Shown here piece after piece: positions 15,001 through 42,000 of a stretch of 64,000 nucleotides of DNA. Numbering within the stretch: position 1 is the first letter of the stretch; the number at the start of each line of letters is the position of its first letter. Source of the stretch: Planctomycetota bacterium (GTDB lineage Bacteria; Planctomycetota; JAJSAM01; JAJVHW01); NCBI GenBank assembly GCA_965248445.1, contig CBDFJG010000003.1:832001-896000 (forward strand), read 5' to 3'. A program made the position numbers.

Positions 15001-18000
15001 GAGTCAGCAGCCGCTTGCCGCGATGCCGCGCCCGCAGCGCGACTGTGTACGCCGCCGCGACGTCCTCGAGGGGCGTGAACTCGAGAGTCAGCGTCGCCTG
15101 CGCCGTCGTCGCCGCGTCGCCGTCGTCCACCAGCACCCGCACGTCGATGGGCGCGGCCTCGTCCTGCGCCGAGGCGGCCAGGGGGCAACCGGCCGCAGCG
15201 ACCAAGAAGAGCGCGAGTCCGAGTCTGCAGCGGAACACAGCCGGACGGTAACACCCGGGCGCGTCCCGAAGCGACCGTGCGCCGGGACGCACCCGACCCT
15301 TCAAATTGAGGACGGTTCCCGCTATCTATGAGGCGGGGCTGCTGGTCGCACCTGGCGAGGAGGGAGCATGCGGGGAACGACGAAGTTCGCGGCACTGGCC
15401 GCACTGATTCTGGTTGCGACGTCTGCGCCGACGGGCACGGCGGCGACGACACAAACGTACGAGGACGGCGACTTCGCCCCGGCCGACTGGGATTCCGTGC
15501 CCGTCGGCCCAGCGGGGGGCGCCACGTCCCTGGCGCGCCAGCCGAACGGCGGGGTTCCCGGAGCGTACGCGGAAGTGACGACGACAGCCGCTGCCGGTGC
15601 AGCCGCGCTGTGGGGCTTTCACATCAACACCACCGCCGTGTACGACACCAGCACACTCGGCGGGATCGACACGGTGAACTACTCCGAGAGTTCGCGTTCC
15701 TCAGGCGGAGTCATTCAGGGAATCCACCCGGCGTTGCGTCAGGCCGGGAAGCTCTACGCCCACATCACCGCCCTGATCACGACGGCCAATCCAGCGGCCT
15801 GGGAGCGGAACGACGTGTTCGGCATGAGCGAGGCCAGCTTCCGAACGCAGGCATCGAGCTCGGACCACCCCGATTTTTCCCCCACCGGCGGCCCGATCGA
15901 ATTCGGGTTCATGCGGGCGGTGTCCGCAGAACTCGATCGCAAGGGCCACATCGACAACTGGAAGGTCACCGTCAACCCGCCGCCCGGCGTCAATCTCCCC
16001 CCCGAGATCCGCGCCGAGTCACACACGACGATTCAGTTCTCGGCGGCAGGCGGTGGCGGCACGGATGTCACAGATCAGGTCGTGAGCCATGCGCCGGCCG
16101 ACGTGACGGATCTGTCCGAAGCCTCCGGCTCGGCGGGCGACAACTCCAACGTCGTGAACGGCGGATCCCAGGCGCGCGCCGGGCTTGCAGGCGGACTGGG
16201 CGCGCGCAGCGGGGCATCCACCGGCATCGGCGCCGGGTTCGTCGAGTCGATTCGATCGACGTCCCTCGCGAGCCACCGCCGCGTGTTCTACGCCGAGTGG
16301 AACGGCAGCGGTCCGCCTCCCACCAACTTGCAACTGAGCCTCACCGTCGGTGCGCACGGCACACTGGGACTTCGCGACCTGGGGTTCGACAATCCCTCGC
16401 CTCCTGCGGCGGACGACGTCTTCGCGAAGGGACGGGCGCGCGTCAGGCTCATCACCACCTCGAACGGCACGAGCACCCCGTTCGACGAGAGTGTCACGCT
16501 GTTGTTCGGCTCGACCAGCGCCACGCCCCTCTGGACCGCCCATGTGTCGCCGGGGGCCGACGCCCAAGGTCGTCCGATCACGACCCTCTCGTACAACAAC
16601 ACCTTCCCCGGACTCCTCTCCGTGCCCCACTCCGAGGAGTTCGCGATCGAGTACCTGCTCGAGACCGAGGCGTTCGTCGCCGCGCGTGCGCCACAGTGGG
16701 GAGCGTTCGCTGATTTTTCCGACACGCTGACGCTTGTCGTCGCCACGGACACCGCCGACATGGAACTCGTGGAGGTGTTCCCCGACCTGGACCCGACCGA
16801 GCCCACCGCCGTGACGGGCAAGCGATTGACGAAGCTCGCCAAGTTCTTCAAGGAGAAGAAGAAGGACGAGACGGCGGAGCTGCTGCTCGGCGACGGCACG
16901 TGGGCGCTCCTGGTCGACCGCAGGCGGCGACTGGCCGGCACATTCACGGTGAAGGACAAGCGCGGCAACAAGCTCTTGCTGACGCTCGACGACGCGTCGC
17001 TGGAGACGCTGCTGGGCGGCCTTGGGTTCATCACCCCGGGAGAATCCGAGAACCTCGGATTCCTCGCGGTCGCGCTGAAAGCCGGCAAGGTGCCGAAACT
17101 GCTCGTCGCGAAGAACCGCAAGGGCACGAAGGTCAAGGTCAAGGTGAAGATCAAGCTCGCCGTCACGAGCGAGGACGTCACCAAGAACGGGGTGTACTCG
17201 CTGTCGTTGAAGGGCGCGCTCCCAGCACTACCGGCGGAGTGACGGACGGCGCCGCAACGTCAGGCGAGAAGTGCTGTGAGCACGCGGCGCGAACCGCGTG
17301 CTCACAGCTGGGGTCGATCGATGCGCGGCTAGTTCGACTGAGGCGCGAGACCGCGCTCGGCGTACAGCTCGCTCTCGGCGCGCCCCCAGTCGGCGCGGGC
17401 GTTGCCCGCACGGCGGCCGCCGTCGATCCAGAGCTGGTGCGCGCGAGCGCGAATCTCGCTCGCGCTGGGAGGCAGAGCGACGGCTTTCTTCGCCGCCTTC
17501 TTGACCGTGGGGGCCTTCTTGATCGTGGCGGCTCTCTTGACCTCGGTGGTGCGGGCGGTCTTGCGCTTCGGCGCCGCCGTCTTCTTCGTCGTGCTCGCCC
17601 TGCGCGCAGCCGGCGACGCCTTCTTGGCGGCCGTCGCCTTCTTCGCGGGAGCTACCTTCTTCGCGGTGACGCGCTTGGCCTTGGGCTTCGCCGCGAGGCC
17701 GCGCTTCGCGGTGCTCTTCGAGTTCTTCTTCGTCGGGTTCTTCTTCTCTGGCGCCATTTCACTCTCTCCTCGGTCGCTTCCGGCGACCTTCAGCTTGGTT
17801 ACGACCTCGTGGGATTGCGCACCACCGGAAGTGCGCAGAATTGAATGTCTCGCAGGGTCCCGGGAAGGACTTCCGGGGACGCGCCCGCGACAACCCCGCA
17901 TTGGATCGCACCGCACGGTGGACGCTCAGCAAACCCTGCGCGAAATGGTGGGGAATTCGCGGATTCCTGCCGCCCCCGCACGCCGTCAGCCAGCGTGGAG

Positions 18001-39000: not shown

Positions 39001-42000
39001 GAAGGAGATCACGGGCGGCAACAGCATCTGCCGCCACCTGCTCGGCGTCGGGATGCAGCAGGTAGATCTCCCACGCCTTCGTGTTCACATCGCGGCTGAC
39101 GGGCACGCACATGCCCGGCCGGCGCAACATCCCGACTCCGGCGAACGACGGAAGGGCCTCAACCTCGTCCAGCCCCACAACGTCGGCGACCCGCGGCACC
39201 TCCTCCTCCTGGATGCCGCTCAGGATGCGTGCGGACATGGCGTCGTAGTGCTCGTAGTCCACGTCGTGCGGTGAGATGCGGATGTCGTCGAGGTAGTGGC
39301 ACGTCGCGAGTTCGAACAGGCTGTGCCGGTGCAGCTTCGACGCAAGCATCGCCTGGTTGCCCCCGGCGAAGCGGGCCCCGACCTCGATCAGGCACGGGCC
39401 GTCGGCGTCGACCTTCGCTTCCATGTGGAACGGCGAGCGCCGCAGGCCGAGCGCCTGCACGACTTCGGTGGCGTAGTCGGCGAGCGAGTCGAACACCTCC
39501 GCGTCGCTGCCGACCTTGATCGACTCGAAGTAGAGGTTCTTCTCACCGTGGCTGTCGCGCTTGTCGTACCACCAGACGTCGGTGATCAACACCTCGCCCG
39601 CGTGATCGACGAGGCCGTTGATCGCGTACTCCTGACCGCCGACGTACTCCTCGAGGAGCACTTCGCCGAGGCCGCGCTCCCTCACGCTCGCGCAGCCGTC
39701 GATCAGTTCGGCCTCGCTGTTCGCGAAGAAGACGCTCATGGAGCCGGCACCCCCGCTCGGCTTCACCACGATCGGCCAGGCGCCAACTGCCTCCTGGAAC
39801 TGGAGCGCTTCCTCGTCCTCGGCCACGACACGCGAGCGGTTGACGCGCACGTTCCCGTGGTCACGCAGGTACGCCTTCATGAGCGATTTGTCGCGGAAGC
39901 GCTCGATGACCTCGCGCGTGTTCCAGTCGAGTTGCAGCCGTTCGTTGATGTCGGCTGCCAGGAGGATGTGTGTCTCGTCCCACGCGACGATCCCGAAGAA
40001 ACCGCCGGGGAACTCGGCCTTCAAGGCGTCGGTCAGTTCACCCAGCCGTTCGCGGTCCACGGCATGCTCGGCGACCACGTTCTCGCTCAGCAGGCGGCGC
40101 CACTTGTACTCCCACATCGCCTGTCGCTTCGGCGACGACAGCAGCACCACCGCCTCGAGTCCCATCCTGTCCAAGAACTGCTTCTGGTTCGCAGCGTACG
40201 TGTCGGTCGGGTCGAGGATGAGGTACGGCATCTCAGGATCAGCCCACGTGGATCTCCAGCCGCTCCCCGGCGTACGTCAGCAACTCCCGCAGCGTGTCGT
40301 AGTCGGGGTGGCGCAGGCGGAACCAGACGTTGTTGAGATAGCCCTTGTGGATCGGGTCGGTGGGCGTGCCGCGGCCCGGCAGGCGCCGATCCCAGACCCA
40401 CGGGCCGATCTTTGCGGCCACCTCGCGCAGTCCTCCGTACCCGAGGATCCGGCCGTCCTTCTGAGGGCGCACCTGCACCGATCCGGTGGCGAACCGCCGA
40501 CTGGGCTTCTTGGCCCGCCGTCCGTGCAGCGTGACCGCCGCCCACTCGAACCAGGTGTCGATGTCGTTTCCCGCGGAGTAGAGGTCCCAGATCCGTTCGC
40601 CGGGGGGCCGGGCACCGATCTCGGAGAACTTCAGCCCCTTGGGGCCGAAGAACCACTCCATGTGCGTCGCAGCGGTGCCGATGCCGAGCGCCTGGATCAC
40701 CTTGCGTCCCATCACGCGCAGTTCGTCGTAACTGTCCAGTTCGACGCGGTTCGTCGACATGATCAGCGGCGAGAGCCGCCGGTCGCTCAGCGCCTCGAGC
40801 ACGCTCGGGTAGTAGTGCGAGATGAACTCGTGCTCCGGCACGCCGTCCACCGAGATCGTGTCGTAGAAGCCTTCGTGGCCCTCGACGAACTCCTCGATCG
40901 CGACGGATTCGCCACGGTGCACGTTCAGGCTGACCGCGGCCTGCTCGAGTTCGACCACGTTGTCGACGCGGTGAGTGCCGAGTCCGCCGAGCGCGGACCG
41001 CGGCTTCAGGATCAGCGGGAACCCCTCACGCTCCGCGAACGCGTGCAGTTCGCGCTTCGACGACACGGCCGCCGAGGCGGCACACGGCACGCCGGCTGCG
41101 CGCAGCGCCGCCTTCATCGCCGGCTTGTCGCGGCAGAGCGTCGCCGAACGGACGGAGAGACCCGGCAGTTCCAGCGCCTCGCGCACCTTCGCGACGTGGG
41201 TGACGATCGCCTCGTCCCCCGTCTCCACGAGATCAACTGAGCGGACGCGATCGACTCCGCGCACCGCATCGAACACCGCTCCCGCGTCGAGCAGACTCGG
41301 CACGTGGACGTAGTGATCGAGACACGGCTTGAGCTCCGGGTCGAGCCGGGACTGCGGCGTGTGGCCGATTCCGGTCACCAGCGCACCGGCCTGTTTCAGG
41401 CCGCGCACCATGTCCGCATAGGCGGAGTAGAGGTCCGGTCCGACGAACGCAACGTGCTTTGTCATGGGCAACCGCGCAGTCGAACCGAACGCTCTGAGCG
41501 GCAGCAACTTCTTCGCCGCGCGAGCCCGGACACCGCCCAGCCGGCGGCGCTAGAGGTGCAGGATGCGCTCGGACTTGGTGACGCTGATCCGCTTGATCCG
41601 GTCAAACGGGATGTACTGCTTCACGGGCTCGGCGGCGACCTTGCGGCCGGCCGCCGTGAACTCTGTGACGACCACGATGTGATCCGAGCCCATCGCCGTG
41701 GCTTTCGCCTTGTAGAAGCCCGTGCGCAGGGAGTAGCCCACCGGCGCTCCCTCGTACGACTCCGGGTTCACGACCGTGACCGGGCCGCCGACCAGCGAAT
41801 TCAGGATGTCGCGGTAGCTCCGTGTGTCGGTCGCCGACTTGGTGGCGCTGATGCCCGTGCGTGCTGTGTCCTCACTCATCGTCTTTCCTCCTTGGGCGGG
41901 CGATCCTACGGTCCTCGGCGCCCGCGCGCGACTTCGAGGTCTCATCCGCTGCACTCTCCGCCCCGAGGCGTGAGATGGCCAAGCGGAAGGCCGACGACGA

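Follow-up and report, generated by a model that had tools for sequence, protein, structure and literature searches.

A two-part system of ATP-grasp ligases, hydrolases and a dedicated GlgA that probably handles an amino-acid-containing reserve alongside glycogen

The glycogen island in the window (the whole stretch of DNA analysed, 64,000 nucleotides) contains a core that is one system of about nine genes in two halves, and the probable task of this gene set is to build and degrade, alongside glycogen, a reserve compound that contains amino acids. Half A is glgA, usually with glgC, together with the ATP-grasp genes AG30, AG22 and AG21; half B is a single operon that opens with an S51-like gene, continues with Est28 and AG27, and closes with Est26. 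No description of such an ATP-grasp/S51/esterase/glgA gene system was found in the literature. A preliminary description of this DNA had proposed a module here, and our data bear out its widely conserved S51-like, esterase and ATP-grasp genes, the lack of a named member and the fitting types of ligase; they do not bear out its treatment of seven ligases as a single unit.

Genes were called from GC3 and reading frame, followed by a Pfam scan, and the seven ATP-grasp genes, two PF00756 esterases, S51-like gene and glycogen genes listed previously were all found again in their places (Table 1). A longer mechanical ORF ends in the S51-like gene, which takes up its C-terminal 323 codons. Est28 may start at a GTG at 26783 or an ATG at 26759, and Est26 at a GTG at 24339 or an ATG at 24294; the stop codon of AG22 overlaps the start of AG21. 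None of the ten ATP-grasp, esterase and S51-like proteins tested reached an NCBIfam cut-off, as had been reported before for seven proteins, and GlgC falls just under its own (NF002772, 532.3 versus 537).

Table 1. Genes of the island, with positions counted along the window.
Gene	Position	Strand	Assignment and basis
AG21	17986-19203	minus	ATP-grasp; Pfam ATP-grasp_3 + CPSase_L_D2
AG22	19203-20441	minus	ATP-grasp; Pfam ATP-grasp 51.2 bits; start picked from GC3 profile
GlgC	20585-21856	plus	Glucose-1-phosphate adenylyltransferase; Pfam NTP_transferase + LbH_GLGC
GlgA	21862-23304	plus	ADP-glucose glycogen synthase; TIGR02095 536 vs cut-off 328
Est26	23581-24339	minus	Small alpha/beta-hydrolase esterase; PF00756 39.2 bits
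AG27	24336-25580	minus	ATP-grasp; weak Ddl-type Pfam match only, 21.2 bits
Est28	25644-26783	minus	Two-domain esterase; PF00756 81 bits
S51-like	26780-27751	minus	Putative serine hydrolase; PF03575 near cut-off
AG30	27806-29026	plus	ATP-grasp; putative L-amino-acid-ligase type
GDE	29056-31050	plus	Pfam, NCBIfam
GT4	31047-32243	plus	Pfam, NCBIfam
GH57	32246-33466	plus	Pfam, NCBIfam
GT3 fusion	33474-37706	plus	Glycogen synthase-phosphorylase fusion, 1410 aa; Pfam, NCBIfam
AG35	37737-38981	minus	ATP-grasp; Pfam
AG36	38990-40231	minus	ATP-grasp; Pfam
AG37	40239-41465	minus	ATP-grasp; Pfam

The two halves travel together. Among 251 genomes of the window's own phylum, with AG30 counted at E<=1e-90, the S51-like gene is present in 44, AG30 in 45 and both in 44, the sole mismatch being an assembly that is 86% complete and in 1010 contigs (G046). 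A second phylum, that of G001, gave 7, 6 and 6 respectively in 151 genomes, and in its odd genome (G270) the S51-like gene is split into two pieces. Both halves were thus found in 50 of the 52 genomes with either half (402 searched); related genomes are not independent, and the counts given here and below overstate the statistics. A 2.8 Mb Actinomycetes MAG (G003) has half B, and AG30 was not found there at E<=1e-20. Where the S51-like gene occurs without AG30 nearby, AG30 lies elsewhere and directly beside GlgA in four of five genomes.

Gene order is retained as well, in keeping with the earlier claim that the triad of S51-like gene, Est28 and AG27 is kept across phyla. Among 56 related loci that extend 4.5 kb or more downstream, Est28 follows in 53 and AG27 in 48; going by record titles, the order holds in Planctomycetota, Acidobacteriota, Myxococcota, Chloroflexota (Limnocylindria), an Actinomycetes MAG and a Steroidobacteraceae MAG. 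The 36 full-length loci, those with 8 kb or more to either side, contain Est28 (34), AG27 (34), Est26 (26), AG30 (25), AG21 (18), AG22 (16), GlgA (15) and GlgC (14), with AG21 mostly directly after AG22 in related loci. No further gene family occurs in more than 7 of the 80 related loci. Horizontal transfer probably carries the system from phylum to phylum.

Two groups of genes listed for the island by the preliminary description lie outside this core. The first is GDE, GT4, GH57 and the GT3 fusion, in which a GT3 glycogen-synthase domain precedes an alpha-glucan phosphorylase (TIGR02094, 707.7 bits versus a cut-off of 191.7). From AG30 onwards each gene end overlaps or comes within 30 bases of the following start, and the four appear to be co-transcribed with AG30. 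They are lineage-specific additions, found in only 3-4 of the 36 full-length loci; in the G027 and G083 loci, too, the module is flanked by GT3-GP and GDE. The second group, AG37-AG36-AG35, is a separate family-specific operon made up of one AG30 paralogue and two DdaF/PRK07206-like ligases (DdaF matches below threshold). AG35 and AG36 occur in none of the 80 related loci, and the trio sits on contigs other than that of the main cluster in all four same-family genomes, so the seven ligases do not form one module.

The glycogen link is carried by AG30 and is not due to chance, which the preliminary description had allowed for. By a count made by hand over 45 holder genomes, a GT5 glycogen-synthase-type gene lies within 15 kb of AG30 in 34 and directly adjacent in 18. 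Moreover, the GlgA beside AG30 belongs to a distinct clade across phyla: in a quick tree with SH-aLRT support only and rows of our own choosing, a branch with SH-aLRT 100 sets all 31 cluster-linked rows (five phyla) apart from 13 rows of non-holder genomes and from the second copies of two holders. The GlgA of the window falls in the cluster-linked clade, is the only GT5 GlgA of its genome and retains KTGGL and the other invariant motifs, and some holders have a second, ordinary GlgA. One genome (G050) has the cluster-type GlgA and lacks the module. In the window AG30 is the first gene of a different, tightly packed alpha-glucan operon, and its association with glucan genes has therefore survived rearrangement. 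Seven of the 45 holders (five of family f24, G094 and G169) show no glycogen gene beside AG30 in the fetched flanks, which reached up to ~9 kb, two contigs being short.

The S51-like protein may be an S51-type serine hydrolase, as suggested by Pfam scores below or near threshold and by the fold search of the preliminary description. Its score against PF03575, 23.5 bits with a cut-off of 23.9, reproduces the earlier value exactly, and of the 22 members of the family that were aligned, 21 match the model at E<0.01 (best 9.1e-10). Of the residues previously named as conserved, E38, E40, H222 and H250 are invariant in the 22-row alignment and S208 is present in 21, with Ala in one. The protein has at least 3915 homologues and contains a helical insert some 110-130 residues long. 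Searched against PDB chains, the family sequence profile returned no S51 chain, only the class-I glutamine amidotransferase PdxT (E 9e-4). In 20 long proteins (20 protein clusters) the S51-like domain is fused N-terminally to Est28, and each nucleophile motif is intact in 19 of them.

Est28 combines an N-terminal beta-sandwich, matched by Enterochelin_N in 27 of 27 family members, with a PF00756 hydrolase domain, in which S254 and H353 are invariant; its model has a pLDDT of 91.2. Est26 likewise has an invariant GxSxG serine (S112) and H220 across 22 sequences. The PF00756 family also includes thioesterases and acyltransferases. With the CBM48-CE1 polysaccharide esterases Est28 shares its two-domain build and its best Foldseek E-values (feruloyl esterases, 6e-27; family profile 1e-18), whereas by TM-score (0.72-0.73) and identity (22-24%) it is nearer to Fes, whose substrate is a small molecule. 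A bolder reading than a joint reserve, in line with the CBM48-CE1 likeness, is that the ligases attach amino acids by ester bonds to the glucose hydroxyls of the alpha-glucan from the dedicated GlgA, maybe extending them to peptides, with Est28 and Est26 stripping them off and the S51-like protein cleaving the released peptide. A fused S51-Est28 protein would suit a substrate in which ester and amide bonds both occur, AG30 occurs with alpha-glucan genes in two distinct operon layouts, and the dedicated GlgA clade is transferred with the ligases, also into genomes where an ordinary GlgA is already present. However, the closeness to Fes speaks against this reading, the N-domain of Est28 matches CBM_48 and CBM_20 only faintly (4 and 7 of 27 members, E>=0.025), no ligase had a carbohydrate-binding domain in the Pfam scan, and AG30 is far from any glycogen gene in some holders. 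We know of no aminoacylated storage glucan and found none in the literature. We consider this reading unlikely.

AG21, AG22 and AG30 are, by sequence, predicted ATP-grasp enzymes of the L-amino-acid-ligase type; AG30 matches RizA (4wd3, E 3.7e-15) and BacD (E 4e-14) in the PDB and is ~35% identical to AG21. AG27 is a candidate ATP-grasp ligase with a RimK/LysX/Ddl-like fold, its model (pLDDT 86, with a C-terminal helical domain) finding its best Foldseek matches in RimK with RpsF (5zk6), RimK (4iwx), ArgX with LysW (3vpb) and Ddl, and thus lying nearest to RimK and ArgX/LysX. Ligases of these three types fit the non-ribosomal joining of amino acids. Two kinds of neighbour also point toward peptide chemistry: in both f24 loci scanned, the gene immediately following AG30 encodes an M14 carboxypeptidase domain, and in seven loci a GCS2 carboxylate-amine ligase adjoins Est26.

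Four different ligases with high mean column identity (72% for AG27 in 28 sequences from several phyla, 74% for AG30 in 21) suggest the ordered addition of defined residues, where a homopolymer would require fewer. The product could then be a small and soluble peptide (an osmolyte, thiol-like cofactor or signal, for instance), built by successive ligases and recycled by the hydrolases, with the glgA link reflecting no more than common regulation of carbon use during stress. The known relatives RizA, BacD and DdaF produce dipeptides, the S51 enzyme peptidase E is a dipeptidase, and the GCS2 neighbour would be in keeping. We find this doubtful: shared regulation alone explains neither a separate GlgA clade transferred with the ligases nor the second GlgA copies in holders, and three serine hydrolases seem excessive for one small peptide.

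The folds nearest to AG27, RimK with S6 and ArgX with LysW, both act on a protein C-terminal Glu, and Est28, whose gene always precedes AG27, closes with ...YE in all 27 family members, as do 19 of the 20 fusions. If the ligases, like RimK, LysX or tubulin ligases, attached amino acids to the C-terminus or a side chain of a protein (the invariant C-terminal Glu of Est28, say, or the dedicated GlgA) and the hydrolases removed them again, the M14 carboxypeptidase of the f24 loci would also have a place. Such protein modification is very unlikely, in that AG30, AG21 and AG22 resemble ligases of free amino acids, the cluster GlgA has an ordinary rather than acidic C-terminus, and four ligases and three hydrolases are many for one protein mark.

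Finally, antibiotic ligases (BacD, RizA and DdaF) are among the best named relatives, and MdnC-type macrocyclases appear at ranks 29-30 of the AG27 fold matches, as might be expected of a secondary-metabolite cluster for a dipeptide antibiotic or an ATP-grasp cross-linked ribosomal peptide that lies near glycogen genes by chance. However, no exporter, transporter, resistance or precursor-peptide gene recurs near the module in the 80 related loci, the sequences are very highly conserved between phyla, the link to glgA is not random, and all module proteins look cytosolic from their N-termini, read by eye without a predictor. A cytosolic look without a recurrent transporter fits an internal compound better than an exported antibiotic. 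For the core this origin is extremely unlikely; it may better fit the separate AG35-AG37 operon.

Our preferred reading, which we hold tentatively, is that the product is an amino-acid oligomer or polymer inside the cell, joined through amide and ester bonds by ATP-grasp ligases and made and mobilised with a dedicated alpha-glucan; what we infer are its amino-acid substrates, its bond types, its role as a reserve and its being a polymer instead of a small peptide. The synthetic half would be the dedicated GlgA, usually with GlgC, plus AG30, AG22 and AG21, and the turnover half the operon of the S51-type hydrolase, Est28 (Fes/CE1 type), AG27 and Est26. The ligases would spend ATP to activate carboxylates as acyl-phosphates and link amino acids into a short peptide or polymer, through amide and probably ester bonds; what chemistry they would perform on the glucan itself is not obvious, as glycogen has no carboxylate. 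This product would be deposited in step with the alpha-glucan of the dedicated GlgA as a combined reserve, which the S51-esterase pair and Est26 would later dismantle.

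The data show one single, widely spread system with two halves. One half consists of a glycogen synthase (GlgA, with GlgC) and the L-amino-acid-ligase-type ATP-grasp proteins AG30, AG22 and AG21, and the other is an operon encoding an S51-like protein, the two-domain esterase Est28, the RimK/LysX-like ATP-grasp protein AG27 and the small esterase Est26. Co-occurrence of the two halves was counted in a sample of 251 genomes drawn evenly from the window's phylum, with a threshold of E<=1e-90 for AG30. The S51-like gene was present in 44 of these and AG30 in 45, the sole difference between the lists being a genome (G046) whose assembly is 86% complete and broken into 1010 contigs. 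Among 151 genomes of the phylum of G001, an Acidobacteria record, the S51-like gene was found in seven genomes, AG30 in six and both in six; in the seventh (G270) AG30 was not found, and the S51-like gene is in two pieces. Combining both samples (402 genomes), 50 carry both genes, two carry one and 350 neither; related genomes are not independent in this count, and the pattern recurs in two phyla and many families. Searches of five genomes whose loci hold only the S51-like, Est28 and AG27 genes recovered an AG30 orthologue (58-64% identity) elsewhere in four, with AG21/AG22-type paralogues also away from the locus. G003, an Actinomycetes MAG of 2.8 Mb, is a counter-example, with no AG30 at E<=1e-20 though the hydrolase operon is present. 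Separately, the split S51-like gene of G270 and the single in-frame stop codons seen in one S51-like gene and one AG30 gene (see table) may each reflect either decay or sequencing error.

Within the window the island is organised as five tightly packed transcription units. Because the window is 69% G+C and contains many spurious ORFs, genes were called from third-position GC and frame. Every gene assignment made in the preliminary description was confirmed by a Pfam scan, and the genes flanking the island are unrelated to it. None of the ten ATP-grasp, esterase and S51-like proteins tested reached an NCBIfam cut-off; GlgA and the phosphorylase half of the 1410-aa fusion passed theirs. The genome's six L-amino-acid-ligase-type ATP-grasp genes are all found inside the island. 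An operator-word search in the divergent promoter gaps returned a sole shared word, of 11 bases, in the gap between AG22 and GlgC and in the region upstream of AG37. Upstream of the island are two ORFs with good coding statistics and no Pfam match at E<=0.001, and a small ORF after glgA has a lipoprotein-signal-like start (a hydrophobic run, then Cys), with no conservation in related loci. Immediately downstream lies an insertion-sequence-rich stretch that includes three equal-length copies of a 475-aa transposase ORF (DDE_Tnp_1_4, Pfam match E 1.4e-141 in the one copy scanned).

Coordinates of the transcription units and other features, in the window unless a genome or locus is named
Feature	Location	Positions	Strand	Remarks
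AG22-AG21 unit	window	20441 to 17986	minus	AG22 stop overlaps AG21 start
glgC-glgA unit	window	20585 to 23304	plus	
S51-like, Est28, AG27, Est26 unit	window	27751 to 23581	minus	each start at or within a few bases of the preceding stop
AG30-GDE-GT4-GH57-GT3/phosphorylase unit	window	27806 to 37706	plus	ends overlapping or at most 30 bases from next start
AG37-AG36-AG35 unit	window	41465 to 37737	minus	
Est28 C-terminal codons (...YE)	window	25644-25655		
ORF, 1098 aa	window	12008-15304	minus	GC3 0.91
ORF, 624 aa	window	15368-17242	plus	GC3 0.85
Small ORF	window	~23301-23567	plus	between glgA stop and Est26 stop
IS66-type transposase	window	45570-46514	plus	truncated
DDE_Tnp_1_4 transposase, copy 1	window	49485-50912	plus	
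DDE_Tnp_1_4 transposase, copy 2	window	53503-54930	minus	
DDE_Tnp_1_4 transposase, copy 3	window	57352-58779	minus	
Low-G+C stretch	window	52-54 kb		G+C falls to 0.62
AG30	L003 (G191, contig C76)	8074-9291		one in-frame TAG
S51-like gene	G270, contig C36	830530-831359		split in two pieces
S51-like gene	G147, contig C1	1835129-1836055		one in-frame TGA
M14 carboxypeptidase-domain gene	L134	10448-13096	plus	directly after AG30
M14 carboxypeptidase-domain gene	L135	10139-12694	plus	directly after AG30
GCS2 carboxylate-amine ligase gene	L045	7258-9222	plus	after Est26

A scan of one genome per species returned at least 550 stretches encoding a relative. The best 80 loci were taken and the window proteins mapped onto them by tblastn. 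Of these loci, 36 extend 8 kb or more to either side; among them Est28 and AG27 are each present in 34, Est26 in 26, AG30 in 25, AG21 in 18, AG22 in 16, GlgA in 15 and GlgC in 14. The other alpha-glucan genes of the island (GDE, GT4, GH57 and the GT3 fusion) appear in three to four loci each, and the additional ATP-grasp genes AG35 and AG36 in none. AG37, AG36 and AG35 form an operon of their own, found on a contig other than that of the main cluster in all four same-family genomes. No additional gene family was found in more than seven of the 80 loci, the commonest extras being a GCS2 carboxylate-amine ligase with CBS domains (seven loci), an Rrf2 regulator and a CBM48 amylase-type gene. The GCS2 protein (650 aa, YbdK-type, two CBS domains) follows Est26 in its seven loci, which belong to Myxococcota and Limnocylindria. 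No recurrent transporter, precursor peptide or small conserved ORF was found near the module in related loci. Since a search of the intergenic gaps for conserved small ORFs or conserved non-coding sequence likewise returned nothing recurrent, the system offers no candidate precursor or carrier peptide.

The link to glycogen was followed by hand from coordinates in the 45 AG30 holders of the phylum sample. In 16, glgA lies immediately upstream on the same strand with gaps below 300 bp; in two (G025, G102) it is adjacent and convergent, and in two more (G037, G057) within about 2 kb. In a further two (G027, G083) a GT5 gene in divergent orientation follows about 0.5 kb downstream, that of G027 matching Glyco_transf_5 at E 1.4e-33 and that of G083 identified by tblastn only. 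With the 12 holders, window included, in which glgA is 4-14 kb off in the same cluster, a GT5/glgA gene lies near AG30 in 34 of 45. Three others (G175, G191, G231) carry AG30 and a GlgA of at least 55% identity on different contigs, and in G046 AG30 sits on a 6.3-kb contig; no glycogen gene was found in the AG30 flanks examined of the remaining seven (five of family f24, G094 and G169). AG30 also directly adjoins GlgA in all four genomes in which the two halves are split. In family f24 AG30 is separated from the other genes of the system; in the two f24 loci scanned (L134, L135), the next gene on the same strand encodes a protein of 850-880 aa that carries a zinc carboxypeptidase domain of the M14 type. 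In the window's own lineage AG30 has left glgA and now heads another alpha-glucan operon, GDE-GT4-GH57-GT3/phosphorylase, and thus the association has outlived rearrangement.

GlgA as such is common, occurring in 173 of the 251 genomes. However, among the matches listed, all 31 with at least 50% identity to the window GlgA came from holders, and about nine holders had a second match. We built a tree of 54 GlgA sequences (quick search, SH-aLRT without bootstrap, midpoint rooting), of which 31 were cluster-linked: the window's, 17 from the phylum sample and 13 from loci of Acidobacteriota, Myxococcota, Chloroflexota and Steroidobacteraceae. The remaining rows were 15 of more than 100 non-holder sequences, two second copies from holders, three from family f23, two from f24 and one from G003. 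A branch supported by an SH-aLRT value of 100 has all 31 cluster-linked sequences on the same side, where the phyla are intermixed. One non-holder GlgA (G050, locus L091) groups with them on a long branch; G050 has neither the S51-like gene nor AG30, which could mean that the module was lost or that the assembly, 85% complete, misses it. The window GlgA, the only GT5 GlgA of its genome, scores 536.4 bits against TIGR02095 (cut-off 328.45) and 475.4 against NF001899 (cut-off 459), and retains K15-T-G-G-L and the later invariant motifs. In these respects, and in the adjacent GlgC, the island resembles a classical glycogen operon (glgC-glgA, with or without glgB/X/P), from which it differs in that its GlgA belongs to a separate cross-phylum clade beside AG30, while several holders also have an ordinary GlgA. 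The earlier caveat that adjacency to glycogen genes might be chance can therefore be set aside, in view of the AG30-glgA pairing in 34 of 45 holders and the single clade formed by the 31 linked GlgA sequences.

AG30, AG21, AG22 and AG35-AG37 share a three-domain ATP-grasp build of about 410 residues, and their matches to chains of RizA and BacD have E-values of 1e-14 to 1e-15. In a PDB sequence search AG30 showed significant similarity across the ATP-grasp core to RizA (4wd3; E 3.7e-15, residues 67-292) and to BacD (E 4e-14). Its lysine, glutamates and an E-I-G-C-R-P-P-G stretch are invariant in 21 sequences (mean column identity 74%), and the ATP-binding and Mg-binding motifs are retained. 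Unlike the characterised L-amino-acid ligases (RizA, BacD/YwfE, DdaF), the proteins fall far from the equivalog models, scoring 23-94 bits against cut-offs of 840-850 (BacD NF053745, 44 against 850; DdaF NF041595, 94 against 840), and their genes stand outside antibiotic clusters, keep 55-77% identity across phyla and are tied to glgA. Likeness to this ligase group would suit a defined small peptide, the glgA link then being one of regulation only; we judge this improbable. That the product is a secondary metabolite is highly improbable. Fusions of AG30 read from long open frames were rejected, the neighbouring genes lying in other frames or on the other strand, as is usual for spurious ORFs at 69% GC. 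Seven long AG30-containing proteins, including GlgA+AG30 and AG30+Est28, are singletons with partial coverage that may be gene-call read-throughs and are weak evidence. A GlgA-AG30 complex prediction scored 0.01 against a mark of 0.32, a value that counts neither for nor against binding.

The S51-like gene lies within a mechanical ORF of 649 codons, the real product being 323 residues, and of the candidates scored at least 3915 belong to its family at E<=0.001. The score first reported for the window protein against PF03575 was obtained again (23.5 bits, cut-off 23.9); 21 of 22 aligned family members match this model at E<0.01 (best 9.1e-10), and many homologues carry a precomputed PF03575 match. 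The residues singled out in the preliminary description held up in the 22-row alignment, E38, E40, H222 and H250 being invariant and S208 present in 21 rows. S208 is the serine of a W-S-A-G-A elbow (G-x-S-x-G-like), and S51 enzymes carry an S-A-G-A motif; judged from the sequence, S208 would be the nucleophile and either H222 or H250 the catalytic histidine. Run against PDB chains, the family sequence profile matched no S51 chain and only PdxT (E 9e-4), a glutamine amidotransferase of class I that shares the wider fold class of S51. When longer relatives were sought, 20 proteins (P0131-P0150; 694-840 residues) proved to carry a complete S51-like domain and, after it, a complete Est28; the nucleophile motifs are each retained in 19 of the 20, as is the -YE end. 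The S51-like protein and Est28 therefore act as one unit.

The Est28 model (pLDDT 91.2) has a beta-sandwich domain followed by an alpha/beta hydrolase. Its best Foldseek E-values are to CBM48-CE1 feruloyl esterases (6e-27), whereas by TM-score (0.72-0.73) and identity (22-24%) the closest match is the enterobactin esterase Fes; sequence profiles agree. Enterochelin_N is matched in 27 of 27 members, with the window protein's match below the Pfam cut-off, and matches to CBM_20 and CBM_48 are faint; against NF007758 (enterochelin esterase) Est28 scores 107.5 bits with a cut-off of 222, the two-domain architecture being retained together with Ser254 and His353, invariant in 27 sequences. Est28 shares the build and the Ser and His of Fes and the CBM48-CE1 feruloyl/acetyl-xylan esterases, but no siderophore or xylan genes lie near it, and an invariant -YE tail and the S51-like fusion are specific to its family. 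Est26 retains a GxSxG serine and a histidine. A polysaccharide-esterase build raises the alternative that the glucan itself carries amino acids or short peptides in ester linkage, the ATP-grasp ligases attaching them and the fused carbohydrate-esterase/S51-peptidase removing them. We regard this as unlikely, and keep it in view because the dedicated GlgA clade moves with the ligases and because of how Est28 is built. Were it true, the alpha-1,4-glucan made by the dedicated GlgA would have its glucose hydroxyls amino-acylated, and amino-acylated glycogen would store carbon and nitrogen in one granule.

In sequence AG27 is still less like named families than AG30, AG21, AG22 and AG37. The folds nearest to its model (pLDDT 86) are RimK with S6, RimK, ArgX with LysW, and Ddl, with RimK and ArgX at Foldseek ranks 1-4 and 7 (E 1.6e-10 to 1.7e-9, TMt 0.59-0.68). 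RimK and LysX/ArgX are ATP-grasp ligases acting on a C-terminal Glu, and the -YE ending of Est28 (27 of 27 members), which extends beyond the Pfam esterase domain and over which Fes is not aligned, could be a site for AG27. The sequence similarity of AG27 to these ligases is marginal (TIGR00768 20.5 bits against 143.4; TIGR02144 17.9 against 275.6), its predicted model carries at the C-terminus an additional helical domain of some 120 residues, and no LysW-like carrier gene was found near it in the related loci or their intergenic gaps. We give only a slim chance to the idea that the system as a whole modifies a protein C-terminus.

Among known systems this one works most like cyanophycin metabolism (CphA and CphB), yet it does not qualify as such a system, having no CphA. 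As there, ATP-grasp enzymes would join amino acids without the ribosome and would be paired with a serine hydrolase, here a putative S51 member, inside the cell and with a plausible reserve role beside glycogen; from their N-termini the proteins here look cytosolic. However, the best ligase scores 39.6 bits against 850 for TIGR02068, over the ATP-binding stretch only, and a Pfam scan found no Mur-ligase-type domain in any island gene. Four separate ligases of other subfamilies, a RimK-like one among them, take the place of CphA, the S51-like protein has a helical insert of about 110-130 residues and is often fused to an esterase, and cyanophycin metabolism has no counterpart to the two esterases and the dedicated GlgA. 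ATP-grasp enzymes form acyl-phosphates that are attacked by amines, or by hydroxyls in the Ddl/VanA-type; S51 enzymes cut aspartyl peptides, and Fes and CE1 enzymes cut esters. From these family activities we infer the chemistry of the system. The simplest reading, which we put forward tentatively as somewhat short of probable, is that amino acids are linked by amide and probably also ester bonds into an oligomer or polymer, which the cell builds up and mobilises along with alpha-glucan. This stays close to the original proposal of a cyanophycin-like polymer or peptide handled with glycogen.

In the passages returned by a full-text literature search, no description was found tying ATP-grasp ligases to glgA, to S51 peptidases or to these esterases, and within that coverage we rate the gene combination as a hitherto undescribed kind of system. 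The amidoligase survey of Iyer and colleagues (2009) may bear on this novelty. The question is directly testable, as the gene set is defined and cultured holders (Actinoplanes digitatis, Archangium gephyra) appear to exist. If the reading of an amino-acid oligomer or polymer made in company with alpha-glucan holds, bacteria of at least five phyla would have in common a pathway not previously described, in which stand-alone ATP-grasp ligases work alongside a specialised glycogen synthase to produce a compound of amino acids. A GlgA subfamily that annotation now treats as ordinary glycogen synthase would thereby gain a function, biocatalysis would gain new ligases and a new peptidase-esterase, and the few bacterial reserve materials, namely glycogen, PHA, polyphosphate and cyanophycin, would be joined by another member or even another kind.
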